DNA of 61,812 nucleotides from a virus: IMG/VR virus record IMGVR_UViG_3300045988_111035, one strand, 5' to 3'. Position numbers and translations under genes: made by a program. This document shows positions 3,480 through 57,275 of the stretch, one piece after another; position 1 is the first letter of the stretch; each line of letters starts with the position of its first letter. The notes beneath the pieces are model-generated. The model did not search any database, was not told where the DNA came from, and was given only the letters and a program-made list of their open reading frames with translations.

Positions 3480-4274
3480 TCACATTCCTCTCATGCGCTC
3501 GTAGGCAAGTTCCGTATCAGACTTCTCACGTGGCAACGAGGCTGGACCGCCTCCACCGCTCACGCTCACGTTCTTGCCGCCCTTCGTACCGTCATGGAGT
3601 TTCTTCTGCTGGTCTATCTTCTCGTTGCGACCACGCTTGTAGCCCTTGTCCTCGGCATCGGCAACCGCCTTGTCGAAGTCCTTGATTTGCATCAGACGCT
3701 TGAAGTCATCCTTGGTGAGCTGGTACTTGGCGGCACGCCAGATGAAGCCCTCCTTGCCTTCCTCGTGACCATACATCCATTCTATCATAGACTTGATGTC
3801 CTCGGGCTTAATCTTTGCCTCCTTGATGAAGGCTTCCAGCTCGGCATCCTCCTTGTCCATGGCTGCGGCAAGCTCCTCGTTGCTCTTGGCTAGTTTCTCG
3901 CTAGCCTCCACCTCGTCCTTCTCCTTCTTCTTCAAGCGTGCCCTAGCCTCATCGTCGCCATTGATGGCATCGATGAAGTCCTGCCCTAGGTTGTCTATCA
4001 GATAGTCGGTGAAACTGAACTCGCTTCCGTCGGGGTTCTTTCGGGTTGACATGCCAGTGATAAGACCGGGTGCTTGCGGAAAATCCCTCAACATGTTGTT
4101 GAAGTCATCCATCCTTTGGTTATTCTGGTCAAACTGGTCGTAATCGGTCGAAAACTGACCATAAACGGCATCCTCATCATCCATGTTGATGTTGGGATAA
4201 CGCTTTGAAAAACGCTCCCTGAAAGCGTCTCTCTTCGATTTAACGTTTTGATTTTCAGTCGTTTCCTTTGCCAT
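3480..4274 (-). CDS. Scaffolding protein candidate
   Basis: 264 aa, highly acidic/basic with coiled-coil-like composition (D/E/K rich), immediately upstream of the MCP. Confidence 0.5.
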   Translation of the reverse strand: MAKETTENQNVKSKRDAFRERFSKRYPNINMDDEDAVYGQFSTDYDQFDQNNQRMDDFNNMLRDFPQAPGLITGMSTRKNPDGSEFSFTDYLIDNLGQDFIDAINGDDEARARLKKKEKDEVEASEKLAKSNEELAAAMDKEDAELEAFIKEAKIKPEDIKSMIEWMYGHEEGKEGFIWRAAKYQLTKDDFKRLMQIKDFDKAVADAEDKGYKRGRNEKIDQQKKLHDGTKGGKNVSVSGGGGPASLPREKSDTELAYERMRGM

Positions 4275-4300: not shown

Positions 4301-4345
4301 TAAAATTAAAGAAAATTTCGCATTACTTTTTGATATTTTGCGCAA
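4301..4345 (-). promoter_or_regulatory. Late-type promoter unit 1: TTGCGCAA core (4338..4345) + 29 nt + -7 box TAATTTTA (4308..4301)
   Basis: Same core-spacer-box geometry as four other sites. It lies upstream of the scaffold/MCP operon (ATG at 4274). Confidence 0.65.
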
Positions 4346-4355
4346 CTCGCTGTAT

Positions 4356-4363
4356 TAACTTTG
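4356..4363 (+). promoter_or_regulatory. Bacteroidota -7 box TAACTTTG
   Basis: Perfect TAnnTTTG match 2 nt before the ATG at 4366, with TTTG at 4337..4340 upstream. This would imply a very short or absent leader. Confidence 0.4.
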
Positions 4364-4365
4364 CC

Positions 4366-4806
4366 ATGATGAAACACCTAAACTCCATATCGCAAATCAA
4401 CCTGGAGAGAGACCGCGAGATGCTTCGGCTCTATCGGAAGGCAAGGGAGGTGGCTACATACCCCACCACCTCAGTCAAGCTGTGCGAGATTGTCGCCTCG
4501 CTGCCCACGTCCTGCTACTACATATCCGACACGTCGGCGGCTAGGTACGTCTCCAACCGACTCAAAGGAAAGATTCCCAAGTTCGGGGCGGCGTTCGAGA
4601 AGAAACGGATGCTATACGAAGCCTTCTACACGGACTTCCTCAAAGTGAGGCAGATGGACGGAAACCAACGGAAGTGCATCAGCCAACTCGTTGACATTGC
4701 GTTGCTGCGACCTGCGCCCTGTCTGGGTCTCTCCTGCCGCTCCATTAGACAAAAGATTTCCGCCCACCTCAACAAGAGCAAGGGCAAGCTCATTCTCGCC
4801 AAATAA
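4366..4806 (+). CDS. Putative DNA-binding protein at the head of the packaging operon (small terminase or regulator candidate)
   Basis: First ATG of ORF 4330..4806. It has an HTH-like segment (VKLCEIVASLPTSCYYISDTSAARYVSNRL) and lies two genes upstream of TerL. Confidence 0.35.
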   Translation: MMKHLNSISQINLERDREMLRLYRKAREVATYPTTSVKLCEIVASLPTSCYYISDTSAARYVSNRLKGKIPKFGAAFEKKRMLYEAFYTDFLKVRQMDGNQRKCISQLVDIALLRPAPCLGLSCRSIRQKISAHLNKSKGKLILAK

Positions 4807-4818
4807 AAAATCATCCAC

Positions 4819-5298
4819 ATGCGTACATTATATATTACCATACTCCTCATCGCCTTGATGGCTCTCGCCATTCCGTTGCACGACAAGTTGGCGGTATCGC
4901 CGACCACACCGACATACACCCACCTCGTCTATATGTTCGGGCACGCTGGCTTCATCCATTGGGCGGTCAACTCATGGTGCATCCTCATGCTTCACCACCA
5001 GTTCAAGCCCCACCGTGTCATTGCCTCATGGCTAGGCTCGGTCGTGCTCTCCTTCCTATATTACCCATCGCTGCCAGTCTTGGGTGCGTCCGTCATAATT
5101 TCATTCTTCATGGGGATTACCTCGCCATGGCTCTACAGGTACAAGCGTCTTGCCTTCTGGCAGATGGTCGTGCTCCTTGCCATCGGCTGCGTCCTGCCGC
5201 ACATAGCTGGCACTTACCACCTCGTCCTCTTCGCCTTCGGTTTTCTCTACGCCAAGGTGGAGAGTTTCATCCATCACGCCAACAACCTAAAGATATAG
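4819..5298 (+). CDS. Rhomboid-family intramembrane serine protease-like protein (compact 6-TM core)
   Basis: FGHAGFIHWAVNSW matches the GlpG TM2 pattern H-x4-H-x3-N. LGASVII matches GxSx (catalytic Ser) and LPHIAG matches the AHxxG catalytic His helix. About six hydrophobic segments are present. Confidence 0.65.
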   Translation: MRTLYITILLIALMALAIPLHDKLAVSPTTPTYTHLVYMFGHAGFIHWAVNSWCILMLHHQFKPHRVIASWLGSVVLSFLYYPSLPVLGASVIISFFMGITSPWLYRYKRLAFWQMVVLLAIGCVLPHIAGTYHLVLFAFGFLYAKVESFIHHANNLKI

Positions 5299-5302
5299 CA
5301 TC

Positions 5303-7480
5303 GTGTCTGTAGCAAAGTCTTCATTGAAGGTCAAGCCTCAGCCAAGCATCTCTGAGAAAAAGCTAAGGGAGATACTTGACGAGAGTACGGAGAGATTGAG
5401 AAGTCTCTTCGCTACCTACCGTCCTATCACTGGAGAGAACGCCCCTGGCCTTCGGTTCGAGTGTACGATTTCCGACTTCCTCGACGGTAAGAAGCTATGG
5501 TTGCCTGTGGAGATGCTAAAGTCCAAGAAATTCTGCGCCATCGTCAACTGCGGCTCCATCGACAAGTTCTGCCAGAAGTTCCTGCCAAGCCAAGATGCTG
5601 AGAAGGCACGTGACGCTGTCTTCCGCTACATCATCAGGCTGCGCTGCAAGCACGACTTCTATTTCTTCGCATACGCCTACGCCCGAATCAAGAACAAGGA
5701 CGGTGGCAAGGACATTCCTTTCCTGCTGCGACCTGCACAGGTCAAGCTCGTCAAGGTGTTTGAGGAAATGCGGCTTCACGGCGAGTTCCATCACATACGA
5801 GTGATTCTGTTGAAGTGCCGCCAGTGGGGTGGCTCTACCGCTACAGACATCTACATGTCGTGGATTCAGATATTCTGGAAGACCAACTGGAACTCCAACA
5901 TCATCGGTCACCAGTCTTCGTCCGCCACACAGGTGTTCGACATGTACGAGAAACTGATAAACGCCATCCCTATGTGGCTCTTCTACGACATCGGTCAGCC
6001 TTTCAAGAACGACGCTCGCAAGTTGAAGACATCGGGCACCATCCAAAACATCAAGTATCTCCTTCCACGTGACTGCAAGATACAGACTGGCTCTGCACGA
6101 AACCCAGAGTCGTGTCGCTCGGGCGACGCTGCCATGGCTCACATCACGGAGGAGGCGTTCTTCCCGAACACAACGGAATGGACTCCTGCCAAGGTAATCA
6201 AGGCGGCTGCGTCTTCCATCCAGACGGACCCGCTCACCTTCATCGTGCGTGAGTCAACGCCTAACGGACGTGAGAACGAGTTCCACGACGCTTGGGTGAA
6301 GGCAAACTCCTTCGACAAGGACGGCAAGCGCATGTCGGCGTTTACCCCTGTCTTCGTGGCTTGGTTCGAGATTGAGAAATACACCCTTCCCTTCAAGAGC
6401 GAGGACGAGAAGGCGAACTTCGCCATCTGGCTTTGGGAGAATCGTGAGGACGAGCAATTCCACGGCAAATACTTCTGGTGGCTCTTCGACATCAAGGGGG
6501 CTACATTGGAAGGCATCCATTGGTACATCGAGAAGTCCAAGGAATACGAGTCATTGGACGATATGCGCCAAGAGTACCCTTCCGACGATGTGGAAGCCTT
6601 CCTGTTCTCGGGCACTACCGTCTTCGACCCATACAAGTTAAAGGAGATGGAGGAGGACTGCAAGGGCGTTGAGCCTATCATGGTGGGTGACATCGAGGGA
6701 GATTCCTACGATGCCGCCGACCCAACTTGCATGGACAACATCAGATTGGTGGAACGCTCGGGTGGCCCATTCAAGGTTTGGTCAGGACCCGACAATAGCG
6801 AGATTGTCAAGCACCGCTACATCGTCTCTTGCGATATTGGCGGCTCTCACAAGACTTCCGACTTCTCCGACATCGTTGTTCTTGATCGATATGATGAGAT
6901 ATACGGCGGCGTGCCTGAGTTGGTGGCTGAGTGGCACGGTCACTGCGACGCTGACCAACTCGCCATGAGGTGCGCACAGATTGCACACTTCTACAACGAC
7001 GCTCTGTTGGTGATTGAGAACAATACGGCATACTCTCGCATGAACAATACTGAGGGAAACCAGTCCGAACTGTTCTTCCCTATCCTCTTGCCACTGTACT
7101 CCAACCTTTACAGTGCCTCTCAGTCCAAGTTGAAGAAGGTGAAGAACATCGAGCAAAAATGGGGATTCAACACCAACAAGGCGACCAAGGTGGCGGTGGT
7201 GAAGACCATGGCACGCATCATCCGTGACGGCGGCTATATGGAGCGTGAGCCTGCCGCCATCGACGAAAGCACCTACTACCTCTACTATCAGCAAAACGAT
7301 TGCTACGGTGCGGTGGCTGGCAAGCACGATGACCGTGTCATGGCACGTGCCATCGCCCTCTACGTGGAGAAGGACATGCCTGTGCCTGAGATTGTTCCGT
7401 TCAAGAGCAAGGAAGAGAAGGAACGTGAGGCACTTCGCCGCAAGAGACCTGTCGTTGCTGAGCTGGCAGGAATGGGATAA
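5303..7480 (+). CDS. terL: Terminase large subunit
   Basis: 725 aa. It has a Walker-A-like KCRQWGGST, an RNaseH-like nuclease region (SCDIGGSHKTSDFSDIVVLD) and a C-terminal GKHDDRVMARAIAL typical of TerL. The start codon is GTG. Confidence 0.85.
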   Translation: MSVAKSSLKVKPQPSISEKKLREILDESTERLRSLFATYRPITGENAPGLRFECTISDFLDGKKLWLPVEMLKSKKFCAIVNCGSIDKFCQKFLPSQDAEKARDAVFRYIIRLRCKHDFYFFAYAYARIKNKDGGKDIPFLLRPAQVKLVKVFEEMRLHGEFHHIRVILLKCRQWGGSTATDIYMSWIQIFWKTNWNSNIIGHQSSSATQVFDMYEKLINAIPMWLFYDIGQPFKNDARKLKTSGTIQNIKYLLPRDCKIQTGSARNPESCRSGDAAMAHITEEAFFPNTTEWTPAKVIKAAASSIQTDPLTFIVRESTPNGRENEFHDAWVKANSFDKDGKRMSAFTPVFVAWFEIEKYTLPFKSEDEKANFAIWLWENREDEQFHGKYFWWLFDIKGATLEGIHWYIEKSKEYESLDDMRQEYPSDDVEAFLFSGTTVFDPYKLKEMEEDCKGVEPIMVGDIEGDSYDAADPTCMDNIRLVERSGGPFKVWSGPDNSEIVKHRYIVSCDIGGSHKTSDFSDIVVLDRYDEIYGGVPELVAEWHGHCDADQLAMRCAQIAHFYNDALLVIENNTAYSRMNNTEGNQSELFFPILLPLYSNLYSASQSKLKKVKNIEQKWGFNTNKATKVAVVKTMARIIRDGGYMEREPAAIDESTYYLYYQQNDCYGAVAGKHDDRVMARAIALYVEKDMPVPEIVPFKSKEEKEREALRRKRPVVAELAGMG

Positions 7481-7541
7481 TCGCCAATAGATTGAAAATA
7501 ACGACAAACAATTGAATTATTCATCAATAAAACTGCATATT

Positions 7542-8009
7542 ATGAAACAGACTTATTCCAATGGGCTTCGCAAGATTATGATTGCCTTCTATCAGCCCAT
7601 CATCACACGCATCGAGTTGTTCCGTGCCACAAGGATGTGGCGCAAGGGAGTGAAGGCGACCATCGCCAAGTACAAGGAGGGCGGTGCTCCACGCTTCTAC
7701 ATGCTCTTCGACTTATCGCACAAAGACTGGGCCATCATGACATACGACCCGAACCGAAAACGGCTGCTCTCCTACAGGCGACTGGTTCAACTAGGCAAGT
7801 GGAAGGCCTCACGCTACTTCAAGAACGTGGAGGACATCAAGAAGGCAAGCTTCTACTACACGCCGTCCAAGTGGGGTGCGCTCGGCTGCGACGAGGACAA
7901 CGGCGTGCGTGAGGAGAAACTGCGCTTGTGGCAGAAGTTCTACATGTTCAAGGTCTCCACCATGATGGAGAAGCTGCGTGCCTACAAACGCAAGCACCAC
8001 ATCAAGTAA
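7542..8009 (+). CDS. Hypothetical basic protein after terL
   Basis: First ATG in ORF 7512..8009, followed by the hairpin at 8016..8047. Confidence 0.5.
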   Translation: MKQTYSNGLRKIMIAFYQPIITRIELFRATRMWRKGVKATIAKYKEGGAPRFYMLFDLSHKDWAIMTYDPNRKRLLSYRRLVQLGKWKASRYFKNVEDIKKASFYYTPSKWGALGCDEDNGVREEKLRLWQKFYMFKVSTMMEKLRAYKRKHHIK

Positions 8010-8135: not shown

Positions 8136-10187
8136 CTATGATGCCGATGGAAGCTCCGCCAATCCGTTAAGACTTGCGCCCGAATCCTTCAAGTGGGCTG
8201 CGCCCTGTGCGGACGGCTGTGGCATGTTGGCGGTCGGAACTTCACCATTGGCAGCTTGCTGCGCCGCAAGAGCCTCAGCCTTGTCCATCTGCTCTTTCAA
8301 GTACTTGCGTATGCGGTACGTGCCAGGGAAGTTTCCGTTGGTCAGCATGGTGTAAGCGTCTATCTTGCCCTGTGACATCAACTGCCATAGCAAGTCGTTG
8401 ATTTGGTCTCTGATGATGGCACTGTAGGAATCCAAGTCCATAGCCACGTCCAAGTCCATGTCTCGCATGGTCTCGGGATTGAACGCCGTGCGGAAGTTGT
8501 CGCCTGTCAGTTGGATGCTGTCGTGCTCGTCACAGAACTCCTGTATGAGATAAATCTTCTTCTTCGCCTCACGAAGCTTGAAACTGTTGAAACTCTCCGC
8601 GAAATCGGTCACTGAGGTCGATGCGGACTCTCTTTCAAATTGGTATTGCTTTCCGCTGGTGTTGTGGTGTACGCCCTGCAACGCTCCCTGCACGCCACTG
8701 CCCTCGCCCGACATCTGCTTTGCGAAGTTTATCATGAACTCCACACCTGCTGGTATGCTCTTGTTGACCAATACCTGAGGCGGCTTGCCTCCGTTCTTGG
8801 AGTTCCAGAAGACCGTTCCGTTGGTCTTCACGTAGTTGACCTGCATTTCCTCGAAGGACTGGCGTTCGCTCATGGCGTTCTCGTCAAAGACCATCGTGCC
8901 CTTTGCGCCGTTGGCTACGAGGAAGTTCACCATCATCATGTAGTGGTTCAGCGTGCGTTGGTTGTTCTCCATCCTCATCACGAAGCTGCGAACCTCGCCC
9001 TGCAAGGCTGGGTAGGCTAGGAAGGTGTACGGATGGATGTAGGTACGATAGCCACCTCTTAATATATAATAAGGTGATTCCCTCGCATCGAGCAAGTAAC
9101 CGTTCGGGGTGACATATCGGCGATACCAGAAGGTCTCCAACTGTTTCTCATACTCTATCAGTTCCAACTCGTCGGGGGCTACGTATGTGATTGGCTCGCC
9201 GTTCTCGTCAAGCACAGGCAAGCCGTTCTCGTCCTTCATGATGTTGTCCTGCTTGCGCTGCTCGTTCTCAGCGTCTATCGCCGCTTGGTCTGCCAACGCT
9301 CTGAAACCAGCCTCACCGCTCAGACGGTCATGCACCCATAGGGATTGGCGGCTCTCCTTCGTCCACGCCTCTATGACACGGTACTTGCCCACGATGGAAG
9401 AGTGCAAGAAGTCCTCCAAGCCACTCAGCTGCGCCTCGCCTGTGTAGGCATAGCCCTGTTCGGGAGCGTAATGGCTCTGCGTCTGGATGTAGATGGAGTT
9501 GAGTTCGTTCTTCTCTCTCTCGCTGCCGTCGGTGAACTTCTCCAGTATCTGCCGCCATGTGAGGTCGTGAGCCTCTGCGATAAACTCGATGTCGCTCAGG
9601 TCTGACTTGTAGAACGGCGGTATGGCAAGCTTGAATATGTCAACCTCGTCGTTGAAGATGGTCTCCCTGCCATCCCTTCGGTCGTGGACGGTCTTCAATC
9701 CTATCAATCCGAAGCAACAGAAAGCGTAGAACAGGCGTGCGTCTCGCTCCTGTCGGTCGTTGTTGTTGTCGTTCTGCCGTAGGTACTCGTTGAAGAAGGA
9801 GATATATTGCTCCTCGTTCGGGTCAACGGCACGGCACGAAGCCGTGGAACGCTGCTGGCGTACCAAGCCGACAAGGGAAATGAGTTTGTCGCTCAACGTG
9901 TCGTACTCCAGTATCGGCATACCCTGCAACTCCATGTACTTACGCAAGGGCATTTTCCTTCCATTGTACTCCACTGGCTCTTCCAACTGTCTTCCCATGA
10001 TGAAGTCATCGGCACGCTTCCACTTCTTGCGAAGCTCCGACATGTCATCGAAGTAACGGCACGCCCATTGCAGGATGCGAAGGCACGACTCACTCTGCTT
10101 GAACCTAGCCGTGCTCACGCCTTTCAGCGAGTCGGGTCCAGCCTCAGCATAGTTGGTTATATCATTTATGAGACGATAATCAGGCAT
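8136..10187 (-). CDS. Portal protein candidate
   Basis: 683 aa, divergent from the terL operon. The start is set at MPDYRLIND (ATG at 10187) because the promoter elements occupy 10206..10256. The call rests on size and position only. Confidence 0.55.
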   Translation of the reverse strand: MPDYRLINDITNYAEAGPDSLKGVSTARFKQSESCLRILQWACRYFDDMSELRKKWKRADDFIMGRQLEEPVEYNGRKMPLRKYMELQGMPILEYDTLSDKLISLVGLVRQQRSTASCRAVDPNEEQYISFFNEYLRQNDNNNDRQERDARLFYAFCCFGLIGLKTVHDRRDGRETIFNDEVDIFKLAIPPFYKSDLSDIEFIAEAHDLTWRQILEKFTDGSEREKNELNSIYIQTQSHYAPEQGYAYTGEAQLSGLEDFLHSSIVGKYRVIEAWTKESRQSLWVHDRLSGEAGFRALADQAAIDAENEQRKQDNIMKDENGLPVLDENGEPITYVAPDELELIEYEKQLETFWYRRYVTPNGYLLDARESPYYILRGGYRTYIHPYTFLAYPALQGEVRSFVMRMENNQRTLNHYMMMVNFLVANGAKGTMVFDENAMSERQSFEEMQVNYVKTNGTVFWNSKNGGKPPQVLVNKSIPAGVEFMINFAKQMSGEGSGVQGALQGVHHNTSGKQYQFERESASTSVTDFAESFNSFKLREAKKKIYLIQEFCDEHDSIQLTGDNFRTAFNPETMRDMDLDVAMDLDSYSAIIRDQINDLLWQLMSQGKIDAYTMLTNGNFPGTYRIRKYLKEQMDKAEALAAQQAANGEVPTANMPQPSAQGAAHLKDSGASLNGLAELPSAS

Positions 10188-10205: not shown

Positions 10206-10287
10206 TAAAATTACTGCATTTTGCCCTCTCGCTTGTGATAAGTTGCGCAACTTATCGTTGTTTTTCCACTTTTTATGTCTATTTTTG
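10206..10287. promoter_or_regulatory. Bidirectional late-type promoter unit 2: perfect 20-bp palindrome GATAAGTTGCGCAACTTATC (10237..10256) flanked by -7 boxes
   Basis: The core is at 10243..10250. TAATTTTA lies on the minus strand at 10213..10206 and TATTTTTG on the plus strand at 10280..10287, each exactly 29 nt from the core. Confidence 0.7.
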
Positions 10288-10314: not shown

Positions 10315-10779
10315 ATGAGTAAACTAGTTGACGTTCATGAAGCCTGCGTCATCACCAAGGATGACAAGGGCAATCTGTCTCTTGTGGGGAAGGCGAAGGA
10401 AGCCTTGACCTCCATGAGCAAGCATAAGGTCTCCGTGTCCATCCTTGTCTGTGAAAACAAGAAAGAAGACGTGGAGAAGTTCCTAAAGGAAAACGACGTG
10501 CCTTTCGCATCCATCCGCTCCAAGGGAGAGGAAAGCAAGGGCGAGGACGGCAAGGAGTCGAAGGCTGACGTTGCCGTCATGCCTGGCTCGAAGGTGGTCA
10601 CGCTAGACGGCGACTGGCAATGGTGTCTTGACCGCATCGTCCAACGCCTGTGGGGTGAGAAGAAGAAGGAATCCCCGAAGAGTGAACAGCAGCGCATGGA
10701 TGCCGCCATGGACGATTACATCAAGTGGGCGAAGCCTACCAAGAAGACCACTGGCGACATGATTCAAAGCGGCGGCTGA
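10315..10779 (+). CDS. Hypothetical acidic protein
   Basis: 154-aa ORF driven by the plus arm of promoter unit 2. Confidence 0.55.
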   Translation: MSKLVDVHEACVITKDDKGNLSLVGKAKEALTSMSKHKVSVSILVCENKKEDVEKFLKENDVPFASIRSKGEESKGEDGKESKADVAVMPGSKVVTLDGDWQWCLDRIVQRLWGEKKKESPKSEQQRMDAAMDDYIKWAKPTKKTTGDMIQSGG

Positions 10780-10907: not shown

Positions 10908-13900
10908 TTACTCTAACTTCCTCACATGCTCCATTCCGTTCAAGTCCTTCAAGAGTTGCTGACGTGTCGAACGTATCTGTCTCAGCAGCTCCTTGTCCTC
11001 CTTTCCGCCCAACTTCTTCTTCAATCGGTTCATCTTGCTTGTGGCACGGCTGATGGCTTGGCGAGCCTTGAATATCCTTGCGTATGTCTCTCGGAACGAC
11101 TGAGCCTTGCCTGGGTCCGATTCCCTCAGCTCCGCCAATCGGTCGGCATATTGCTTGGTGCTGCTCTTGACACTCTGAATGCGCCAATCCTCGGTCACGT
11201 CCTTGGAGTCGGCAACCATCAGATACTTGTCATCCGCTTTCGTCAAGTCCTTGATGTCCTCGCCTTGCTGGTAAGCATCTACCATGTCCTTCGCCTCCTG
11301 CCAAGTAAATGCCTTGTACTCGCTTTGCGAGAGGAACTTTCTCATCTTTTCCCTCATCTTGCGTTTCTCGGTCACGCTCTTGGCTTCGTCAAAGCGTTGG
11401 GTGGCTATCTGCAACGAGGTTACACCGTCCTGCATTTCCTTCGATTCAAGTGCCTTGATGGAAGAGATTGCAGCTTGCAGTTGCTTCTCGGCATCAAGTC
11501 CATTTCGTTGGCAACTCTGATAGGTGAGGAACACGCCTTCCATGTCACCGCTTAGGATGAAGTTCTTGAAGTAGTCCTGTGCCTTCCAGTTGCTGAATCC
11601 CTTCGAGGATGGGAAGAAGAAGTCAACCGCCTTGAACTCCTTGTTTTCTTGGCTCGGAATCAAGAAAGGTGCCCAGTAGAGCGCATCCTTGTAAAGCAAA
11701 CCGATGGTCTTGCCATACTTGCGTTGTATCTCTTGGTCGGCATGGCTGGCTTGGAAGTCGCTCAAATAGTTGATGTCATCAAGCACCATTCTTGCCATTG
11801 GGTTAGCCTTACCTAGCATTCTCTGCACCATTGGGCCAGGGAACTCCAGTTCTCCCTTCGAGTTGAAAAGATACTCTGGAACCTCACGGAACTGCTTGCC
11901 ATGACGCACATACATTTCCGTGCCATCGGCATAGCGTCCTGCAAATATCTTGCTCTGCTGTCCTGCCGTGTTCCCTCTCATCAAATAGTCGTACCACTTC
12001 ATTCCGTCTGGATATGCCAATTCGTATGGACTCTTGTAACTAGGATTGGTCTTCCGTATCTCCTTGGCTTTCTCATTTTCCTTTTCCTCGTCCATCGCAC
12101 GGAAGGCGGTATTGATGCCATTGGCAAATGCCTCATAAAATCCAAAGCCTATCAAATAGCAGATTAATGCTGACACCTGTCTCTGCTTCCTACCAAAATA
12201 TTCAGGTGGAAGAGCTTCTTTCTTTCTAGCTGCTGCCCATACGTGGTTATAGTAATTCTTGAAGCTATCCAAGGTCGCCTCGTTCCAGATAGAGCCGAAA
12301 CCTGTAAGAGCCAAGAAATGGCGAGTCGTAGAGGCGTTCCAGTCTGGAGATAGAAGACAGCGACCAGCTATTTTCAAGGTTCGATGGCTTGCTCCCAGTA
12401 CATCCCAGTGCTGACCTCCAAACATATCGTTCACAAACTGACCATCCTCGTCCAAGGCTTTGCTTAGTTGCTCGCCCGTCCAACCGTATTTCTTGGCACG
12501 TTCTTTGGTTCTGTCCGCACGCATACGATAAGTGGCAAGTTTCAAACCATCATGCAAGAAGTCCCACAATGCCACGTCCATACCTTTATTGAGCATAGAA
12601 ACCATCTGCGTGGCTACCTCGAAAGGAATGGTTGCAGCACCTACTGCCGTTCCTATCTTGCCTCGCTCTCCCAATTTCTGTTGCAGTTTTTGGGCAAAAC
12701 CACGCCAGTTGTCAAACATATTCTGCACGTCCGCCGCCGCATAGTCGTTGGTCGCTCCAAACTTCACTAGGTGGGATGCCGCCTCCTGAAAGTCCTCGGG
12801 ATTGGCGAAACATGGCAACTGGTGCGTCCTCATGGTGTCAATGAAGATGTATTTCATAAAGTTGGCCATTGCCTTCTTGGGACCGAACTCTATCAGATTC
12901 TGGACCATATACACCTCGGTCAACGCTCCTGCATGGAATCCACTGAAACCAAGCTCAATCTTCTTGGCACTCGAAGCGGCGGTGTCGAACGCTCTCCAGA
13001 ATGGGGATGACTCATAAGTGTCGAACACCACCCCGAAACGGTCGGCTGCGCTCTTCTCGCTATATAGCACATACTCCTTGCCTGTGATTGGGTTCTTTAC
13101 CTTCACTTGCTTAGGGGAAACGTTATACACCCATACTGGACCTATGCCTGGAACCTCGAAGTACTTGTATTGCTCCAAGTTGAACGGTGCGACAGAAGAA
13201 AGAATCGGGTCGCTCGAAATGATGTCGCCGTTCTCGTCTCTCTCCACCACGTTCAAGCCGCTCACCTCTTGCAGCATGGTCTTGTTAGCCCACGCCTCGA
13301 TGTTGCTACGGCTGTAGTATGCCATCATCTTGGTGATGTCGGTGGTCTTCGGCACAAGTCCTAGGTTGATTCCCTCCATCAAGGTACTGATGGTTCTTGG
13401 CTTCTCGTTCGGGCTTTTCGTGCGCTGACGGTTCTCCACATACATCTTGTATGCCTCGGGATTGGACTTCTCCTTATCCCAGATGTGGTTTACGTAGTCG
13501 GCGGTGAAGCCAGTGTCCTCACGCAAGGTGTGGTTGTCCTTCAACCAGTCGTAGGTATAGTTGTACCAGTCGTGGATGGCATCAAGCGTTGACTTCATTT
13601 CCTCGGAAAGGTTCTCGTACTCGATACCCTTTGGAACGATTCTCGTATGGGCAATGAGCGGCTTCACTTGGTCTGTAAGGATGTCCGTGCCGTCAAGAGG
13701 AACAAAGCCAACGTCCAACTTGTGGTTCTCGTTGATGGCGTTCGCTATCTTGCTGGCTTGCTCGCTCACGGCGTGTACATCGTCGTACTCTGGCACAAGC
13801 TTCTCCTCGCCTCCCTTCTTCACCGTCTTGTAGTGGAATCTGCCTATCAATTCCTCGAAGTCATCGATGTAAGGTTGAATGTCTCTCACGTCCTTAGGAG

Positions 13901-16900
13901 TGATATGAATGTGCCCCTTGGCGAACACGCCTGTACTATTCAAGTCGAAAGCCAAGTCACGGATTCTTCTCGGTGCTTCTATTATATAAGGTATAGCCTC
14001 AGCGAGTGCATCTGCCTTAGAAGACTTCCCCTTATATTCCGAATAGAGCTTGTCGAAGACACCGCTTCCTGCCATGCCCTCGATGCGTCTCTTGATGTCG
14101 TTGATGTAGATGGCATCGTCGGCACTCGCCTCCTCCATGTTCTTTCGTCGGTGGATGACGGCATGTTTCACGGTTCGGGCTGCGCCTTCCTTGCTCACGT
14201 CCGTACTCGTCACCTCCGCCATGGCATCCATCACCCTCTTGTCAAGGTCTGCCGCCTCTGGTGAGGTCTCGGCTGGATATACCTTTCCCTCGTAAAGGTC
14301 TAGGTCGGCGGTCTCCTGCTCGTTCAGCTCATGTCGGGTCAGCCAATCCTCATAGCGTTGGGTTGCCTCCACTTGCTTCTGCTTCTCCCATGCGAACATG
14401 TCTGGCATAGGGTCTTCCTTGTCGTTGATGGCGTTCTGCCATTTCTCATATTCCTTGTAACGTGGGAAGAAGGATTCATCGCTCTCTCCTTCCTCTCGTT
14501 TTGGCAACGAAGGCATATCGTCGCCGACAAGTCCATGACGGTCACGCCAGTCCTTGTTGAGCTGTTCCCATTCCTTCTTGCCCTCCACGTCCTTGTCTAT
14601 GTCATAGAACTGAGGTGGCTCTGGGTCGTTGGTGTCCTCTCGGGCATCCTTCCACCGCTGCCACTCACGCACACGCTTCATGTATTGGATAGGACTCTCA
14701 CCCTTCTTCATGCGTGGTTTGCCACTGCCCTTGTCACTGAGCGCATTCTTGATGTCATCGCCTGTGGCTTGGCGCATGATGGCATCTTGCTTGTCCTTAG
14801 ACATGTTATCCCAAACGTGCAGAGCCTTCCCTGCCTTCATCAGGTAATAGCGCAAGTCCTTGTCGTTGAGAAGACCAGGAACACGGATTCCCAACTTCTT
14901 CAACGCCTTGATGAGATAGTGCTTCATCTTAGTCCAAAGGGTGAAGTCCTTTGCCGTCTTAGGGCCATCCTCCGCCAAGTGGGCGATGTATTCCTGGGTT
15001 GCCTCGTTGAGACGGTCGGCATTCTTCCATTCAGGGTCGTACTTGTTGGCGAAGTCGAGAATTTTGCCACGTGTGTCACCATCCACCGATTTATACACAA
15101 AGTTGGCGAAGTCTCTCACACCTTGCTCACCACCTAGAAGCACCTCCATGCCCTCGTGTCCCACCTTCTCATGGAAGACGGTGCGCTGCGCATCGTTGGC
15201 ATCCTCACAGTTAGGGAGATAGACATGAACGGTGTGGTTGCTTGGGTCGTACCATCCCTTTGCGCCACGTTCCACGTCCGCACGATACTCCTCAGGAACA
15301 CTCTCCACGGAAGCATAAACGTTAGCCTCAGCACCTCCAAGAGTGTTGGCTACATTCTTCACCACATCTAGTGTGTCCTTGCCGATAACAGAGCCATTGT
15401 TTCTCATGCCGTCGCCCAAGCGTGCCTTGGTCTTCTTTGCTTTCTTGCCATACACCTTGGAATAGTGAGTACCTGCATGTTCCCCTTCAAGAAGAACACC
15501 CTTGTTGTCGGTCTCGACAAAAGGAACGCCAAGTTTCTCCAACTCTTTTCTGAGACTTGGAGTTACCACGTTGGAAGGCATGATAACCTTTTTGTCCTTA
15601 AACATGTCGTTCACAATAACATCAGCTACCTCACTGTCAGGCACGATACGCACAGGTTTATCCCAACGAGAGAGAATCAGCTTACGTTTGCCTGTCAACT
15701 GTCCTTGGATAATACCTGCCTTCCACTCGACTTCACCCACAGCATCCTTGGCTTTGTCAGCCTTGTAACCACTGGTGAGCTCGCTCTTTGGCACCTCAAC
15801 CTCTACAGTTACAATGTTTGGACGATTCTGAGCCTCGCTAAACTGGTCATTCAGTGGGGTACGAGAAGTATGAAGGTAAGGATTGTAAGCAGCCTTTAGT
15901 GACTTACCGTTACCCTTGTTTAGGGTAAACATACCCTTATCGTCAGCAAGTTCTGGTCGCTCGTCTGCCTGTTCCCATTTACCAAGTTCGATAGGCTGCA
16001 CAAACTTGCCCTTCACCTTTGCAGCCATCGGTGGATAGAGTTTTCCATCATCACCAAGTTGCATGGCACGATACACTTTTACAGTGTCCTCATTATCAAG
16101 TTTCTTGATGGTCTTAGGGTCAGTCACAACTGAATAGCTGGCACCGCCTCCATCCATGACAATCTGGTCGCCTCTATCCACATCCTCTGTATCAGATGCC
16201 AATGAGTTTCTTCGTTCCTCGTCTGTCATGCCCATACGAGACATAACGTTTCGAGCCTCAACCTCTCCTGCAAGATTATAATAAAGTTCGTCATCAGAAA
16301 GATTCTTCAAGGCATCTTTCAGTTTGTTATTGATACCCAAGGCATCTTTGTTCCCCTTCGGAATCGAGTTCCAAACTTCGTCTGCCAAACGGTTGAGTTC
16401 ATTGATTGCCTCATCCACGTGATAGCCAGTTTCGGCAATTTGCTTGGCATTCAAGTCACTAAGTTGGTCATAGTCATTTACCAACTTCGAGTTTTCTTCA
16501 CCGTCCAATAGGTTCATGGCATCCCAATAGTACTCAATAGCCTTATCCTTAATGAAAGGATTGTCACTATTGATTAGCCCCTTGAACTTACCCAAATTCA
16601 ATGCTGTTTTTTTGAAGTCAACCCATGTCTTCATCTTTTGTAGGGCATAATCCGCATACTCAGAGTTTTCATCAATGATTTTCTGAATCCTCTTACGGAC
16701 ATCATTTGAGTTTCCACCCTTGGCAAAACCCTCGATATATTGGATTGCATGCTGCACTTCATGTGCAAGAACCTTTTTACCATAATCGTTCAATGAAATT
16801 TGTGTACCAAGGAACTTCACACCTTTTTCTAGAGGGATTGCATTTAATAGACGCACGACCTTAGCAACTTTCGGCATATCTTTCTCTATTTTATTAAAGA

Positions 16901-19900
16901 GTTCATCTGCCTTTAACTCATCCTCGGTATATCCACCAAACTGATCTATAGCATCATCCGCCCAACTTTTTGTATCATCAGGAAAGGAAGCACACGCATC
17001 CATAAATTTCTTTTTAGCAACCTCGATGTCCTTGAAATTAGATGGCTTAGAATATTTCTTCTCCACGGTAAACATATCCGTTCTTAACGCAATGTTATTG
17101 TGGAGATTATCATACATTCCTTGCAAATCCGTTTTCCCCACCATCTGAACATCAACGTTCTTTAGAGATGGATAAGCATCAAACAGCCCTTTATCATCAA
17201 TGAGGTCAGACAACTTACACAAAGGTTCGTTGTAAGGAGCATAAGGACCTACATGAACAATATTTATATCTTTATCTACAGTTATTGGCTTCTCTGATTT
17301 AAAATCAGGGATTTCATATCTCCATTTTCCATCAGCACCACGTTCCCAACCTGTTGCAAACTTTATGACTTTTGGTGTTAGAGCATTATTTTCCATCGCT
17401 TTTGCTACTTGCAGGTTATCCATGCGGATGGTTTGCTCCTCTGCCTTGTCAGCCTCAGCAGCTCCCTTCTCACCTGCAAACATGAAGCGAATGCCCTCAG
17501 AGTTATTGATGGCATCCATCGTAACCTTTTCACGTTCTTCCTTCCCATCATAAGTATGCACATCAATGCCAGCCTTCTTCAAGGCATCCACCACGTCCTT
17601 AGGAGTGTCCTTTGGCACAATAGCCTTCTCAAATTCATCAAGACCATAAGGACGCATGAACTTGGTCTCGAAATAGATGGAAGGCTTCTCATTCTTGACA
17701 GCATCAATCAATTCATTCAACTTGTCGATGTCCTCGTCAGTCAAGTCCACACCATACTCATCCTTAGCATATTTCTTTGGATTCTTCTGTGTGGCAGCCT
17801 CTTCCAATCTATCCATGCCATAGCTTTCAAATGGACCAGCATCAGGTTGCATCTTATCAGCCAACTCATCATAGACAGGTTGCCATTTTTCTTGGAACTT
17901 CTCAACGTCCTCATAGTTGTCGGTCAAATTGCCCTTCTTCTTGCGAATTTGGTCAAGAGTCCCCATAGGTTTCAATATGGATGCTACGAAATGACTGAAA
18001 GAAGCCGAACCAACGGAAGCATTCTTGCCATCTTGTTTCATTACCTTCACAGCATTCTCCACAGTGTTAGGCAGATACTTACGATTGCCATCTGGCTTAT
18101 ATCCAGCAAAGATAACCTCCTCCACATTATAGCGGTCATTAAGTTTTTCTTTCCATGAATCGAAGTCTTCCTTCATACTATTGTCCTGAATGTATTGTTG
18201 TGCAGCTTTCATCGTTGCATTCTCGTCCACCTTACCAGAAGTCTCTGCATCACGCAGTATGCCATCAACGAAACGAGACAAAGCCCCATAGTCATAGCCA
18301 TGTTCCTTCATCCAATCAACATCAAGTTGTTTGTTCTTGGCAATATTGGAGTTTGGTCTTTTTTTGATAAACTCCTCATCCTTCTTGATGAAGTTCTTGA
18401 TGTCATTGTCAAACTCCTCCCGATTACCATCATATACCTCACGAATGAACAAATCAAGAAGCTTTTCCTTCTGTTCATCAGTAGTTGAATAGATACTATC
18501 CAATTTTCCCAAGATGCCTTTCACCTCATCATGGAGTTCCTTTGGATATTTACCTTCCACATGCACCAACTCAGGAGCTTTTCCTTTCTCATGCAAATAG
18601 AGATAAGCCAAGCTGTTTGTATCACGACCATCCATGAAGCTGTTGATGGCATTTCTTGTGAGACTTTGCATTTCCTTTGGAACAGACTCGATGTCAATGT
18701 AAGCCACATCACTACCATTTCCGCCAAACTTTTTCTCTACAGGTGGATAGATAGGAGTCCACGCATCAGCAGCATAAGTACCGATGTTCTTGCCTGTTCT
18801 CTTGGCTATCTTTTCTGCCTTCGGTATCAGTGTAATCTCACCAAAGCCCGAATATATTCCGTTTTTGGAGTCTATTACACCCATGGAAGGAGCAGCAAAG
18901 CCACCTTGCTTGATAGCTTTGCGTAGCTTGTCAAGGCTGATGTTGTGCATACCAAACATGGTTTTGTCCGCATCCCTTGAAGCCTTAGCAGCCTTGGCAG
19001 CCTCTCGTGGGTCAATGCCATCGAGCAAGTCCTTCATCACACGGTCTGCTACCTCCTCAGCTGTGGTGAAGTGGATGTGAAGGAAGTCGGCAACCTTCTT
19101 CCAGAACTTGGCAAGAACCTTCTTCAACCGTTGAAGGGCATAGAGTGCCTTCGCCTTCTCCGTGACGCTACCATCACCGTCGAGGATGGCATCATACTCC
19201 TCACGGATTCGCTCCGCACCTCTCTTGCCTGAATATTGGGCAAGTACCTCGTCGGCGATGTCGCTGTCAGTCTCCAAGTGAGGATATTCCCTCCTCACCT
19301 TATCCCACACAGGCTTCAAGCCCTTCATGAGGTTCACGATGTTCTCCCACTCCTTAGAATTGCCAGAACGCACCGCCTCAGCCCACAAGTGGGCATATTC
19401 ATGGATAGGAGTTTCACTGTTCGCAATACGAGGGTCGATGTAAATCTTGCCATCTACGGTGTAACCGTATGCCTCACCGTTAGGAGTGCGGAAAAACTTC
19501 ACATGATTCTTTATCTGCATATCCTCTGGCTTGAAGATGACATAGTTAGTGTCACCTTCCTCTGCACCGCTACCATGATATACTCGCTGTTCACGAATGT
19601 AGTTGGCATTCACCTCCTGCTTCTCAGCAAGTCCAGTCGTGTCCTTGAACTCACCACTATACAGTGCTTGCTTGATAGAATTAGCGATGTCTGCCAAAGG
19701 TTTGCCCTCAGCCTTGCGCAACTTAATGGCATTATAGTAGAACTCAACGATATGAGCATCACCATCATTGGTAATACCTTTGTTGTCCTTATTGGTAACA
19801 ACGACACTGATAGCATCTGATTGTCCGTTTGTGTCTAGGTTGGAGACGGTTGCGTTATGGTCGCTGACACGGACAGTTACCACATTGCCATTCTTACACT

Positions 19901-29579: not shown

Positions 29580-29661
29580 CAAAAGTAATGTGTTTTTCAC
29601 TATCTCTTGCGATATATTGCGCAACTCAGAGCACAACTATTGAAAGTTTTCGCTATATTTG
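29580..29661. promoter_or_regulatory. Bidirectional late-type promoter unit 3: TTGCGCAA core (29617..29624) flanked by -7 boxes
   Basis: TACTTTTG lies on the minus strand at 29587..29580 and TATATTTG on the plus strand at 29654..29661. Both are perfect TAnnTTTG matches and both lie 29 nt from the core. Confidence 0.7.
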
Positions 29662-29690: not shown

Positions 29691-30074
29691 ATGAAGAAAG
29701 AAGAAGGAAACAACAAGACTCCAAAGGAGAAAAGGAAGAAGACTGGAGGACGCAAGGCTGGAACGCCAAACAAGGTGACGAAGGCGGTGCGTGAGAGCTT
29801 GAAGGATGCCATCACTGGTTATCTCAACGGCATGAACGAGAAAGGTTTCTCGCTCGCACAGGACTTGTACGCCATCGAGGAGCCTGCTGGAAGGCTGGCG
29901 ATGATTGCCAAGTTCCTGCCATACGTCGCTCCTAAGCTACAGTCCATATCGTTCAACAGTGACGATACGAGAAGCCTCACGGTCGAGGAGACTTTGATGA
30001 AGCTGGATGAGAACTTCAAGAAGGAGGAGACCACCATCAACATCAAGAACCTCAAGATTGTTAACAATGGCTAA
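29691..30074 (+). CDS. Basic N-terminal DNA-binding-like protein (small terminase or regulator candidate)
   Basis: 127 aa. The N-terminus KEKRKKTGGRKAGTPNKVTKAVRESL resembles GRPxGxxNK-type DNA-binding arms. Confidence 0.3.
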   Translation: MKKEEGNNKTPKEKRKKTGGRKAGTPNKVTKAVRESLKDAITGYLNGMNEKGFSLAQDLYAIEEPAGRLAMIAKFLPYVAPKLQSISFNSDDTRSLTVEETLMKLDENFKKEETTINIKNLKIVNNG

Positions 30075-33815: not shown

Positions 33816-33823
33816 CACCGTAA

Positions 33824-41146: not shown

Positions 41147-41149
41147 ATT

Positions 41150-45236: not shown

Positions 45237-45479
45237 ATGGGTAATAGAATACAGAACCAAGTCGCCAACGTCTCCCGAGAGGAACAGGCGAGGAAAAAGA
45301 TTGAGGAGGCGAGAATCCGAATCACAGAGAGGGAGAAGGACGCACACTACAAGTACGTCAAGGTGAGCAACGGACTATCCAAGCTCACCCTGCTCTGCAA
45401 GACGGACGATGAAGGAAACCTCGTTCCATCAGAGGTAAAGAGAATCAACAGACTAAAGAAAATACTGGGAATAAAATGA
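45237..45479 (+). CDS. Hypothetical protein (80 aa)
   Basis: ATG ORF with a 4-nt overlap with the next gene. Confidence 0.5.
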   Translation: MGNRIQNQVANVSREEQARKKIEEARIRITEREKDAHYKYVKVSNGLSKLTLLCKTDDEGNLVPSEVKRINRLKKILGIK

Positions 45480-46012
45480 GTGAAGAATCAGCAAAAGCAT
45501 TCCACAAGCTAGTGAGTGCCATGCGCACGTCACAGAAGGAGTTCTGGAGAACACGGAACAAGTACGCCCTCAAACAGTCCATCGAGCTGGAGAAGCAAGT
45601 GGACGAGACCATCATGGAGGCGAGCGCATCCGATGTTCCCGACAACGAGAACGGCAAATTCTTTTTGGAGGTGGCGCAACTACGCACCACCACCAAGCTC
45701 TACTTCGCCGAGAAGAAGAAATGTGATGCCGACAAGGAGAAAATCAACGCTTGGTTCAAGTCCATCAAGGAGGGGGAAACCAAGGTTGACAAGATGCTGG
45801 TCAAGTGGTTCGACGAGCTGGCAATCAAGGAAGGCAAGCGCATCGTCTGGCACGTCATGGAGAGATTCCCCAACGCCAAGGAGGCAAGGAGCATCTTCGA
45901 CAACACCGACGAGCAAATGGCGAGAATCGAGCTTAACGACCACCTCAGGAAACCAGCCTGTCCTGGCACCATGTACTTCATAGCCAAGGAATACAAGGAG
46001 GTCAAGAAATGA
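45476..46012 (+). CDS. Hypothetical protein (178 aa)
   Basis: ATG ORF with ATGA overlaps on both sides. Confidence 0.55.
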   Translation: MSEESAKAFHKLVSAMRTSQKEFWRTRNKYALKQSIELEKQVDETIMEASASDVPDNENGKFFLEVAQLRTTTKLYFAEKKKCDADKEKINAWFKSIKEGETKVDKMLVKWFDELAIKEGKRIVWHVMERFPNAKEARSIFDNTDEQMARIELNDHLRKPACPGTMYFIAKEYKEVKK

Positions 46013-46593
46013 TACATACAGTAACAATCAAAAATCACAAGATTATGGAAAAGAAACAAGATGCTCCTGCAAAGGAGAAGTTCACCGACAAGGGTGACGG
46101 TAAATCATTGCGCTCACGCACTGGCACATGGTTCGAGTGCAAGGTGAAGTACGAGAAGACACAGGAAGACGGAACGAAAAAGCCTGTACTGGAGGCATAC
46201 ACCGTGGATGCCCTCTCCTTCACCGAGGCAGAGGCACGCATCTTAGACGAAATGAGCGTCTATGTGTCTGGAGAGTTCAGAATCATCAACATCGACCCTG
46301 CCAAGTATGGGGAGATATTCTTCTCCGACATCGACGATGATGACCTTTGGTTCAAGGCGAAGCTAGCCTTCATCACCATCGACGAGAAGACACAGAAGGA
46401 AAAACGCTCCTACAACAACTTCCTTGTTCAAGCCAAGTCACTGGAGCGTGCAAGAAGATACGTGGACACCGTCATGGGCAAAACCATGATAGACTATGAA
46501 ATCAAGAGCCTCATCGAGACCAAAATCATGGACGTGTTCGAGCATGACTTGAAAGTGAGCATCAACGTCTGTGACAAGGGCGACAACAAGTAA
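46009..46593 (+). CDS. DUF4494-like conserved Bacteroidota protein
   Basis: WFECKVKYEKTQEDGTKKPVLEAYTVDALSFTEAEARI...FITIDEKTQKEKRS..LVQA...IMDVF matches the DUF4494 pattern recalled from memory. Confidence 0.5.
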   Translation: MIHTVTIKNHKIMEKKQDAPAKEKFTDKGDGKSLRSRTGTWFECKVKYEKTQEDGTKKPVLEAYTVDALSFTEAEARILDEMSVYVSGEFRIINIDPAKYGEIFFSDIDDDDLWFKAKLAFITIDEKTQKEKRSYNNFLVQAKSLERARRYVDTVMGKTMIDYEIKSLIETKIMDVFEHDLKVSINVCDKGDNK

Positions 46594-46602
46594 CCATCTT
46601 TG

Positions 46603-46634
46603 GCGCAATTCGGCTATACGTAACCGAGTTGCGC
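46603..46634 (+). terminator. Hairpin after 46009..46593 that overlaps the left half of late-promoter core 4
   Basis: GCGCAATTCGG / CCGAGTTGCGC forms an 11-bp stem (one G-U pair) with a 10-nt loop. Confidence 0.5.
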
Positions 46635-46673
46635 AACTTATCAACACTACCCCACTTAAAACATGTAACTTAG
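46629..46673 (+). promoter_or_regulatory. Late-type promoter unit 4: TTGCGCAA core (46629..46636) + 29 nt + TAACTTAG (46666..46673)
   Basis: GAGTTGCGCAACTTATC is 16/17 identical to unit 2 and has the same 29-nt spacing. The ATG at 46678 follows 4 nt later. Confidence 0.6.
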
Positions 46674-54155: not shown

Positions 54156-54200
54156 CAAATATAGCGGATTATCCACTCCCATTTGTGATAATTTGCGCAA
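54156..54200 (-). promoter_or_regulatory. Late-type promoter unit 5: TTGCGCAA core (54193..54200) + 29 nt + TATATTTG (54163..54156)
   Basis: GAGTTGCGCAAATTATC lies on the minus strand with a perfect -7 box, 44 nt upstream of the holin ATG. Confidence 0.65.
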
Positions 54201-54214
54201 CTCATGACGAAAAA

Positions 54215-54247
54215 GGGAACGCAAGCCCTTCCCATGGCTGCGTTCCC
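54215..54247 (-). terminator. Strong hairpin between 54292..54786 and the lysis-cassette promoter
   Basis: GGGAACGCA/TGCGTTCCC (9 bp) plus an inner GCC/GGC with an 8-nt loop. Confidence 0.6.
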
Positions 54248-56900: not shown

Positions 56901-57275
56901 TTACAACAAGCCATATTTCTTCGCTTGCTTGCGAAAGAATCGCTTCTTGTTGGCGATATACTCTATCAAGGCACGATTCCAACGCTGGGCATGCCCATGC
57001 TTCTCCTCCATGCCTTGCGGTATCGTTCCGTCTGCCACATATTTCTCCACCATGCGAGGAGACTTGCCTAATATCTCAGCCACCATGCCCTTGTTGATTG
57101 TTCCATCGTTCAACATGGCTAGTTGCAACACCATCAATTCCATGTCAACGCCCTTGATTCCACAACTACGTGGCTCGCCATTGTCTATGGCGTTAGCCTC
57201 TGCCTCGGCTTGGTCTGCCAAAGTCCGAAGGCTCGCTGCCACTATCCTATATTCGCTTGATTCCAACATAGACAT
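56901..57275 (-). CDS. HTH DNA-binding protein (regulator candidate)
   Basis: GMVAEILGKSPRMVEKYVADGTIP is HTH-like. 124 aa. Confidence 0.45.
   Translation of the reverse strand: MSMLESSEYRIVAASLRTLADQAEAEANAIDNGEPRSCGIKGVDMELMVLQLAMLNDGTINKGMVAEILGKSPRMVEKYVADGTIPQGMEEKHGHAQRWNRALIEYIANKKRFFRKQAKKYGLL

Follow-up and report, generated by a model that had tools for sequence, protein, structure and literature searches.

A palindromic element at a fixed distance from -7 boxes as the probable upstream half of activator-dependent late promoters in a Segatella copri prophage family

We analysed the viral DNA stretch IMGVR_UViG_3300045988_111035 of the IMG/VR database (61,812 nucleotides, nt; "the window" denotes this stretch at its full length), which is a temperate, podovirus-like phage or prophage of Segatella (Prevotella) copri, and in it the 8-bp palindrome TTGCGCAA, which recurs between genes at a fixed distance from -7 boxes. 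Sequence comparison indicates that the element is a real, strongly selected cis-regulatory signal specific to this phage family, and it is probably the upstream half of activator-dependent late promoters of these S. copri prophages. We infer the transcription starts, activation rather than repression, the late timing and the phage origin of the binding factor.

The 61.8-kb window contains six copies of TTGCGCAA against 1.46 expected, a number reached in none of 100 shuffled sequences. Five copies are intergenic (starting at 4338, 10243, 29617, 46629 and 54193). A preliminary description of this DNA had listed these five and called the motif always intergenic, which is true of them but overlooks a sixth copy (19714..19721) inside an open reading frame (ORF) of 5596 codons; because this copy has neither the TATC flank nor a box in either direction, it looks like a chance copy outside the regulon. 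The positions given there for cores and boxes all proved correct when the window was re-read. In seven of the ten directions leading away from the five intergenic copies a Bacteroidota-type -7 box (TAHHTT..) stands exactly 29 nt from the core: TAATTTTA (4308..4301 and again 10213..10206), TATTTTTG (10280..10287), TACTTTTG (29587..29580), TATATTTG (29654..29661 and 54163..54156) and TAACTTAG (46666..46673). When offsets from 0 to 60 were scanned, offset 29 was used seven times and every other offset at most once, and the probability of finding at least seven of 12 directions (both directions of all six copies) at one given offset is 8e-20, so that the exact spacing, already noted in the preliminary description, is confirmed. 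The composite of core, spacing and box, observed seven times, did not appear in 200 first-order Markov simulations and had no match in the coding DNA of the window; the similar frequency in coding or shuffled DNA that would have spoken against a signal was thus not found. A relaxed scan of the window (up to two core mismatches, spacing of 28-30 nt) gave no credible additional site. Every direction in which an intergenic core faces a gene start has its box at 29 nt, except towards the terminase operon, where the box lies at 10 nt. Six of the seven spacers begin with nnTATC, and the second site is a perfect 20-bp palindrome (GATAAGTTGCGCAACTTATC, 10237-10256), both as previously described. Four of the seven boxes fit TAHHTTTG exactly and the other three are off at one position (TTTA, TTTA, TTAG), while all obey TAHH, with H at -10 and -9. 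Boxes deviating at the nearly invariant T-6/G-5 (three of seven here) are also frequent in relatives (TACCTTTA, TAACTTAG, TACTTTAG), and since these last two positions are normally invariant, the deviation suggests weak intrinsic promoters.

A pattern scan of IMG/VR recovered the unit in at least 118 stretches, nearly all on contigs of ~60 kb. S. copri is the host: the unit also occurs in prophages in S. copri chromosomes and metagenome-assembled genomes, and strain G8 (NZ_CP146523) contains a prophage of the family. When the units of the fetched loci were grouped by the protein encoded downstream, they fell into the same seven positions. The search of related phage genomes proposed earlier has therefore given the same seven gene starts throughout the family, ahead of virion and lysis transcription units as had been claimed, with core, flank and 29-nt spacing invariant and with the consensus (A/G)AG-TTGCGCAA-(C/G)TTATCAC-N21-TAHHTT(T/A)(G/A). 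At protein identities of 65-75%, the core, flank, boxes and spacing are kept and the spacers differ. A sister clade (portal ~73%, scaffold 65-70% identical) has the 20-bp palindrome and both boxes of the portal site unchanged between diverged spacers, the portal promoter (unit 2a) being retained in this way in the relative L003 (portal 73% identical), and the conservation profile at the portal site peaks at the palindrome and the two boxes. The flank depends on the site, with TTATCAC at the main promoters and weaker arms (TTAACAT, TTGAACA) at two secondary divergent promoters; because these variants follow the site and not the genome, they were rejected as a pointer to the binding protein. At the scaffold promoter of the sister clade the core is degenerate (ATGCAGAA or TTGCTGAA), whereas the proximal arm is perfect or nearly so and the box stands at 21 nt, so that CTTATCAC-N21-TAATTTTA is kept; the window instead has a perfect core and a weaker arm. 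From this it follows that core and proximal arm form one recognition unit in which the arm is at least as important as the palindrome. The preliminary description had taken the TTGCGCAA palindrome as the functional unit, and the signal is indeed real, but at 16-24 bp the unit is longer, and it is asymmetric: (A/G)AG-TTGCGCAA-nTTATCAC.

The restriction of the unit to one family was seen in a scan of 185,579 species (one genome each, strict composite pattern), in which 16 of 18 matches fall in prophages of this family, two chance matches in genomes of ~23% GC making up the rest; a host regulon is therefore unlikely. Sister phages with a different core but the same flank and box were sought in IMG/VR and none were found, the same flank and box with changed central core bases giving only three chance-like matches. 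The Bacteroides phages BS-TP4 and BF1-TP2, which have the same backbone, contain no TTGCGCAA unit and, to judge from their sequences, seem to have recurring upstream motifs of their own. In BS-TP4 the arrangement AAAAGATAA(A)CAT-N20/21-box is present twice (23400-23440, 37480-37520), and BF1-TP2 has AACGATAAATCTTACCCG twice and AAGTTTTATCG three times (39170, 46090, 15975, 42155, 61000); all of these recurring sequences near -7 boxes contain GATAA/TTATC.

The -7 element of Flavobacterium johnsoniae extends from T-12 to G-5, lies 4-5 nt from the start and excludes G at -10/-9, and its -33 element is weak (PMC6847099). In the window, the -7 element TAnnTTTG of Bacteroidota primary-sigma promoters is present and the -33 TTTG, which lies ~19-21 nt upstream, is absent: there is no TTTG at a spacing of 15-24 nt from the box in five units, and inspection of the spacers of the remaining two shows none either. 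The predicted placement puts the core at -49..-42 with the dyad at -45.5, TTATCAC at -40..-34 and the full palindrome at -57..-34, so that (A/G)AG-TTGCGCAA-nTTATCAC would cover about -52..-34 and the box about -12..-5, with genes starting 4-44 nt downstream of the boxes. As previously described, the core centre is ~33 nt above the box and thus not at the canonical -33 position; that position, however, is predicted to be occupied by the TTATCAC flank.

We propose that a late promoter consists of a -7 box of the host primary-sigma type and the phage-specific element (A/G)AG-TTGCGCAA-nTTATCAC. A phage-encoded factor, most likely a dimer produced from the early operon, would bind the palindromic core together with the proximal arm and, standing at a position like that of class II activators next to sigma region 4, would recruit the host RNA polymerase to, or stabilise it on, -7 boxes many of which fall short of the consensus (TTTA, TTAG). 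As the core reads the same on both strands, a single bound factor could serve the two symmetric promoters at 10243 and at 29617 (29 + 8 + 29 nt); a dimeric factor is in keeping with these two symmetrically used divergent pairs. In this way the factor would switch on seven units at once, namely those of the scaffold and capsid genes, the portal gene, the operon of the polyvalent protein, the operon 46678-51047, the lysis cassette and two small genes. The dyad sites used by Mu C, lambda cI at PRM, class II CRP/FNR and LuxR/TraR have their centres between about -41 and -45, and the likeness to these regulators is one of functional analogy only. The earlier proposal of a dimeric activator or repressor site defining a late regulon is thus supported as regards a selected cis-regulatory signal at virion and lysis units with symmetric divergent use, but not as regards symmetry of the unit itself, which is asymmetric.

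Several points weigh against activator-dependent late promoters. All positions relative to +1 are predictions from the published box-to-start distance (PMC6847099). The presumed early promoters of the window likewise have no TTTG -33 element, so that its absence is neither distinctive nor diagnostic of the promoters considered here. A scan of the ~60 ORFs of the window against Pfam, PHROG and NCBIfam found no known late activator, sigma factor or classical DNA-binding family besides a CI-like repressor, and two candidate proteins that were modelled have no recognisable DNA-binding fold. A site covering -52..-34 could equally block the polymerase. Finally, the degenerate core at the scaffold promoter of the sister clade means that the palindrome is not strictly required, and recognition may be monomeric or asymmetric.

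The individual units are arranged as follows. Unit 1 (4301..4348, minus strand), the predicted promoter of the scaffold/major-capsid operon, has the distal GAG, the core at 4338-4345 and the flank AATATCAA at 4330-4337, and its predicted start at ~4296 precedes the first gene (3480-4274). Unit 2a (10206..10250, minus strand) would drive the portal gene (8136-10187) from a predicted start at ~10201, and has its core at 10243-10250 and the flank CTTATCAC (GTGATAAG on the plus strand, 10235-10242); unit 2b (10243..10287, plus strand) has this core in common with it, and with the flank CTTATCGT (in relatives CTTAACAT) it would form the divergent promoter of a 154-aa gene (10315-10779). Unit 3a (29580..29624, minus strand), with core 29617-29624 and flank TATATCGC, precedes the polyvalent-protein operon, that is 29043-29546, 27723-29027 and then the gene of the 5596-aa polyvalent protein (10908-27698). 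From the same core unit 3b (29617..29661, plus strand), in which CTCAGAGC stands in place of the TATC flank (in relatives CTTGAACA), faces a 127-aa gene (29691-30074). The symmetric service of divergent promoters that had been claimed for sites 2 and 3 is thus upheld. Unit 5 (54156..54200, minus strand; core 54193-54200, flank ATTATCAC) lies ahead of the lysis cassette, which comprises a holin-like gene (53590-54111), a GH19 endolysin gene (53103-53630) and further genes. Its core is preceded at 14 nt by an intrinsic terminator (54210..54247, minus strand; GGGAACGCAGCC...GGCUUGCGUUCCC followed by UUUUU), which ends the upstream structural operon and marks an operon boundary. Elsewhere on the minus strand (56741-56790 and 56853-56883), a terminator-like hairpin with a 13-bp stem follows gene 56901-57275, and after it a promoter-like site TATCAT-N19-TAATTTTG stands ahead of 55806-56714; as this site has no TTGCGCAA, not all structural-gene promoters carry the palindrome.

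Unit 4 (46629..46673, plus strand; core 46629-46636, flank CTTATCAA) immediately follows the last gene of the long early operon and would drive the 46678-51047 operon. Its predicted start (~46678) is the A of the ATG, so that a leaderless mRNA is expected; in relatives the unit shows either this leaderless arrangement or a leader of 33 nt. On the other side of core 1, the terminase operon (4369-8009, plus strand) has its -7 box TAACTTTG at 4356..4363, only 10 nt from the core and with 5 nt between it and the ATG at 4369 (in relatives TAATTTTG, at a distance of 5-6 nt), and here too the mRNA would be leaderless. Leaderless mRNAs are predicted at 46666-46680, 4356-4371 and 33721-33731 (the CI-like repressor gene), with boxes 2-6 nt before the start codon. 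Core 1 is at about -30..-23 relative to the predicted start of the terminase operon, and because it falls between -33 and -7 of this divergent promoter, occupancy of the site should occlude the terminase promoter. At site 4 a degenerate second core, TTGGCGCAA (46600..46608, plus strand), lies 20 nt upstream of core 4; in relatives the second TTGCGCAA stands 21 nt upstream and is exact (in many of them) or nearly so, although some have no upstream copy. The core and the upstream copy can base-pair (46603-46634) in a hairpin with an 11-bp stem (-18 kcal/mol, z = -3.3), with stems of 14-16 bp in relatives (z from -3.3 to -5.8 across the window and relatives). As covariation in support of this hairpin is weak, almost none, an auxiliary operator is the simpler reading of the second copy and is preferred to an RNA structure.

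Among the alternatives we weighed, one takes the unit for a core-promoter element of a modified polymerase: a phage sigma-like protein, or a MotA/AsiA-like pair of a DNA-binding adaptor and an acidic sigma-binding protein (e.g., the DUF4494 protein), would read TTATCAC in place of the -33 element, and TTGCGCAA would be an extended upstream contact. Within the unit, TTATCAC-N21-box varies least and persists even next to a degenerate core, the flank lies exactly at the -33 position, and a basic, family-restricted 178-aa gene overlaps the acidic, widespread DUF4494 gene directly upstream of unit 4. However, no sigma, MotA or AsiA homology was detected among the ~60 ORFs scanned, the -7 box is of the housekeeping type, the binding of DUF4494 to polymerase is conjecture, and the palindromic core with its bidirectional use is better explained by a symmetric dimer, so that we regard a modified polymerase as unlikely. 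About as unlikely, in our view, is a repressor operator, at which a phage protein present in the lysogen or early after induction would occupy -52..-34 and keep the late promoters shut until removed. Such a role would agree with the overlap of the site with the -33 region and with the place of core 1 in the promoter of the terminase operon (-30..-23), from which repressors classically occlude, and P1 C1 provides a precedent of one repressor with many dispersed operators. Yet such rigid phasing (29 nt to the -7 box) typifies an activator in contact with the polymerase rather than a steric block, many boxes are sub-consensus, and the immunity region beside the CI-like gene (33722-33867) contains no TTGCGCAA.

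Binding by a host transcription factor, which would couple late expression to host physiology, is in keeping with palindromes of 20-24 bp near -41..-45 being typical of CRP/FNR-type host regulators and with the candidate phage binders having no positive identification; nevertheless, among the 185,579 species the unit is confined to prophages of this family (under the strict composite pattern, looser host sites being possible), and a host factor appears very improbable. That the element has no promoter role at all, and serves instead as a terminator hairpin, in packaging, replication or recombination, or as a target of restriction or methylation, we consider extremely improbable. Its core does contain GCGC, the phage encodes a C5 methyltransferase, and the core and upstream copy at site 4 form a hairpin of 11-16 bp right after the last early gene. 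But that hairpin is almost without covariation and not every relative has it, an extended palindrome is present at site 2 alone, where the hairpin is weak (-7.1 kcal/mol, z = -1.7), and when the cores were examined as intrinsic terminators none had a U run, the true terminator adjoining unit 5 and not lying within it. Nor would any of these roles account for the precise 29 nt between the cores and the -7 boxes of seven gene starts.

A close functional parallel to activator-dependent late promoters of the kind proposed here may be drawn with phage Mu, in which a few late promoters share a dyad site at ~-43.5 over the -35 region; in the window the predicted dyad is at -45.5 and the site would span -55..-34. 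Late promoters controlled by Mu C have a usable downstream element and no good upstream one, and C is produced as the transcription phase before them closes. The present promoters differ from those of Mor/C in their Bacteroidota -7 box, in the unrelated sequence of the site and in the two sites driving divergent pairs, and there is no Mor/C (PF08765) homologue among the ~60 ORFs scanned. Class II sites (CRP/FNR at -41.5, lambda cI at PRM, LuxR/TraR at -42.5/-44.5) likewise consist of a 20-24 bp palindrome at the sigma region-4 contact with strict phasing, and a single TraR or CRP site can drive a divergent pair of promoters. Here, by contrast, the predicted dyad at -45.5 belongs to a -7 box promoter and only the promoter-proximal outer arm is kept at unidirectional promoters; the sequence is unrelated to the 22-bp CRP/FNR palindrome (GTGATAAGTTGCGCAACTTATCAC), there are no host sites of the composite kind, and no cNMP-binding/CRP, LuxR or lambda-repressor-type protein could be linked to the element among the ORFs scanned. 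With the Bacteroidota primary-sigma promoter the units share the -7 box TAHHTTTG, whose position ahead of the genes agrees with a predicted start 4-5 nt further on, whereas TTATCAC preceded by TTGCGCAA replaces the -33 TTTG. The late promoters of P1 (Lpa) and P2/P4 (Ogr/Delta) also have an inverted repeat in place of the -35 element and one phage activator, but the 9-bp repeat of P1 is centred near -22, whereas the repeat here is 33 nt above the box (~-45.5 predicted), and P2 has TGT-N12-ACA near -55, read by the Ogr/Delta zinc finger, and not the motif described here. No Ogr/Delta (PF04606) match was found in the ORF scan, and a Cys-rich 108-aa protein is unrelated by Pfam. In T4 middle promoters (MotA/AsiA) a phage element also replaces the upstream element and the host downstream element is kept; the MotA box, however, is asymmetric and centred at -30, whereas the element described here is symmetric and further upstream, and no MotA or AsiA homologues were found among the ORFs scanned, leaving at most a functional analogy.

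The preliminary description had put forward three candidate binding proteins. The putative helix-turn-helix protein (56901..57275, minus strand), which has weak HTH_17 and terminase-small-subunit matches, was rejected, as it is not conserved in the sister clade in spite of an identical motif there: 11 of 14 spanning sister-clade loci have no homologue and one has a protein of 27% identity. The other two are conserved, but positive evidence was found for neither. The 146-aa protein (4369-4806, plus strand; previously given as 4366..4806) adjoins site 1 and has, by eye, an N-terminal helix-turn-helix-like segment; its position upstream of the large terminase is kept in BS-TP4 and BF1-TP2, and it may equally well be the small terminase. 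The AbrB-like protein (47732-48133, plus strand) has a 33-residue AbrB-like stretch in common with a BS-TP4 protein annotated as AbrB by its authors; this likeness is weak and has no Pfam support.

Two further candidates are encoded at the end of the early operon. The DUF4494 protein (46009..46593, plus strand; Pfam match 4e-56) is the product of the last early gene, which ends 35 nt before core 4, and is the best-conserved non-structural protein in comparison with BS-TP4 (53% identity vs 26-39% for portal, capsid protein and terminase). It is acidic (median isoelectric point of the family 4.9), and its family of ~2,500 clusters includes lytic crAss-like and Tenacibaculum phages as well as BS-TP4 (in the replication module) and BF1-TP2, both without the motif; at other DUF4494 loci we found neither TTGCGCAA nor any other recurrent palindrome at a fixed distance from a box. 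The protein consists of two repeats, and its confident AF2 model had no informative neighbour in the PDB, only weak eL20-like matches. Being acidic, widespread and present in relatives without the motif, it was discarded as a direct sequence-specific binder; DUF4494 is unlikely to be the specific binder but could be a co-factor. The 178-aa basic protein (45476..46012, plus strand), encoded by the second-to-last early gene, whose end overlaps the start of the DUF4494 gene, is a candidate factor with 58 homologues, all at least 50% identical and all in this phage family. Its AF2 model (pLDDT 93) shows a four-helix bundle and a small alpha/beta domain, with no fold match in the PDB and no DNA-binding fold, and a faint RHH_1 match (E = 0.22) was not supported by the model. 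The Cys-rich 108-aa protein (46678-47004, plus strand), the first product of unit 4, matched no Pfam family and could act in a positive feedback loop. Sequence searches of the PDB with four candidates returned nothing, and because the remaining candidates are all present in every spanning locus (the 178-aa protein in 33 of 33), gene distribution within the family cannot discriminate between them. It is conceivable, though improbable, that the late switch is operated by proteins of wholly uncharacterised folds, the 178-aa protein reading TTGCGCAA/TTATCAC while DUF4494 binds the host RNA polymerase, in a MotA/AsiA-like two-part appropriation of the unusual Bacteroidota sigma possibly timed by methylation of the central GCGC by the C5 methyltransferase of the phage.

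With respect to methylation, the genome very strongly avoids CGCG (3 vs 182 expected), CCGG (4 vs 182), GATC (6 vs 238) and GGCC (22 vs 182), whereas GCGC, on which the motif is centred, remains present in 95 copies and alone among the G/C-only 4-mer palindromes is not avoided. The C5 DNA methyltransferase (36678-37934, plus strand) aligns to M.HhaI and M.HaeIII in the catalytic motifs only, and an assignment of its target from these enzymes was therefore rejected.

Profile scans further identified, on the minus strand, the P22-like portal (8136-10187), an SU10-like capsid protein (1893-3437) behind a scaffold-like gene, an integrase (30219-31715), the CI-like repressor (33389-33721), the holin-like protein (53590-54111) and the GH19 endolysin (53103-53630), and on the plus strand the large terminase (5303-7480), the methyltransferase and a replication initiator (37967-39331). 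The 5596-aa "large polyvalent protein" (10908-27698, minus strand) has InPase (PF18823), PBECR5 nuclease (PF18814) and LPD23 (PF18838) domains, its ORF takes up 27% of the window, and its equivalents in cultured relatives are BS-TP4 gp3 and BF1-TP2 gp68. On the minus strand, structural genes continue beyond either end of the window, and the genome is therefore probably circularly permuted. A megablast of bases 1-25000 against GenBank phages gave no match; the nearest cultured relatives are the Bacteroides phages BF1-TP2, BS-TP4 and BKO1-TP3, with portal identities of 26-34% and a common backbone that includes the giant gene. Between the replication genes and the three conserved last early genes, small genes (40700-45230, plus strand), including those for YopX-like, ProQ-C-like, DUF4884 and PNK3P-phosphatase proteins, are mostly absent from related contigs, and this looks like an accessory region.

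Segatella/Prevotella copri is among the most abundant and least tractable bacteria of the human gut. To our knowledge, almost nothing has been reported on how Bacteroidota phages time their gene expression, and the literature that we searched contained no late-promoter signal for any of them. The element would work like known activator-dependent late promoters; its sequence, the type of host promoter and the putative factor are new. It gives a precise, testable definition of a late regulon for a very common prophage family (at least 118 IMG/VR stretches, several S. copri lineages), and offers a 24-bp bait for finding the missing activator as well as a compact, possibly inducible and bidirectional promoter module from which genetic tools for Prevotellaceae could be built. 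Should the binder turn out to be a fold-orphan protein, this would be the first function assigned to that protein.

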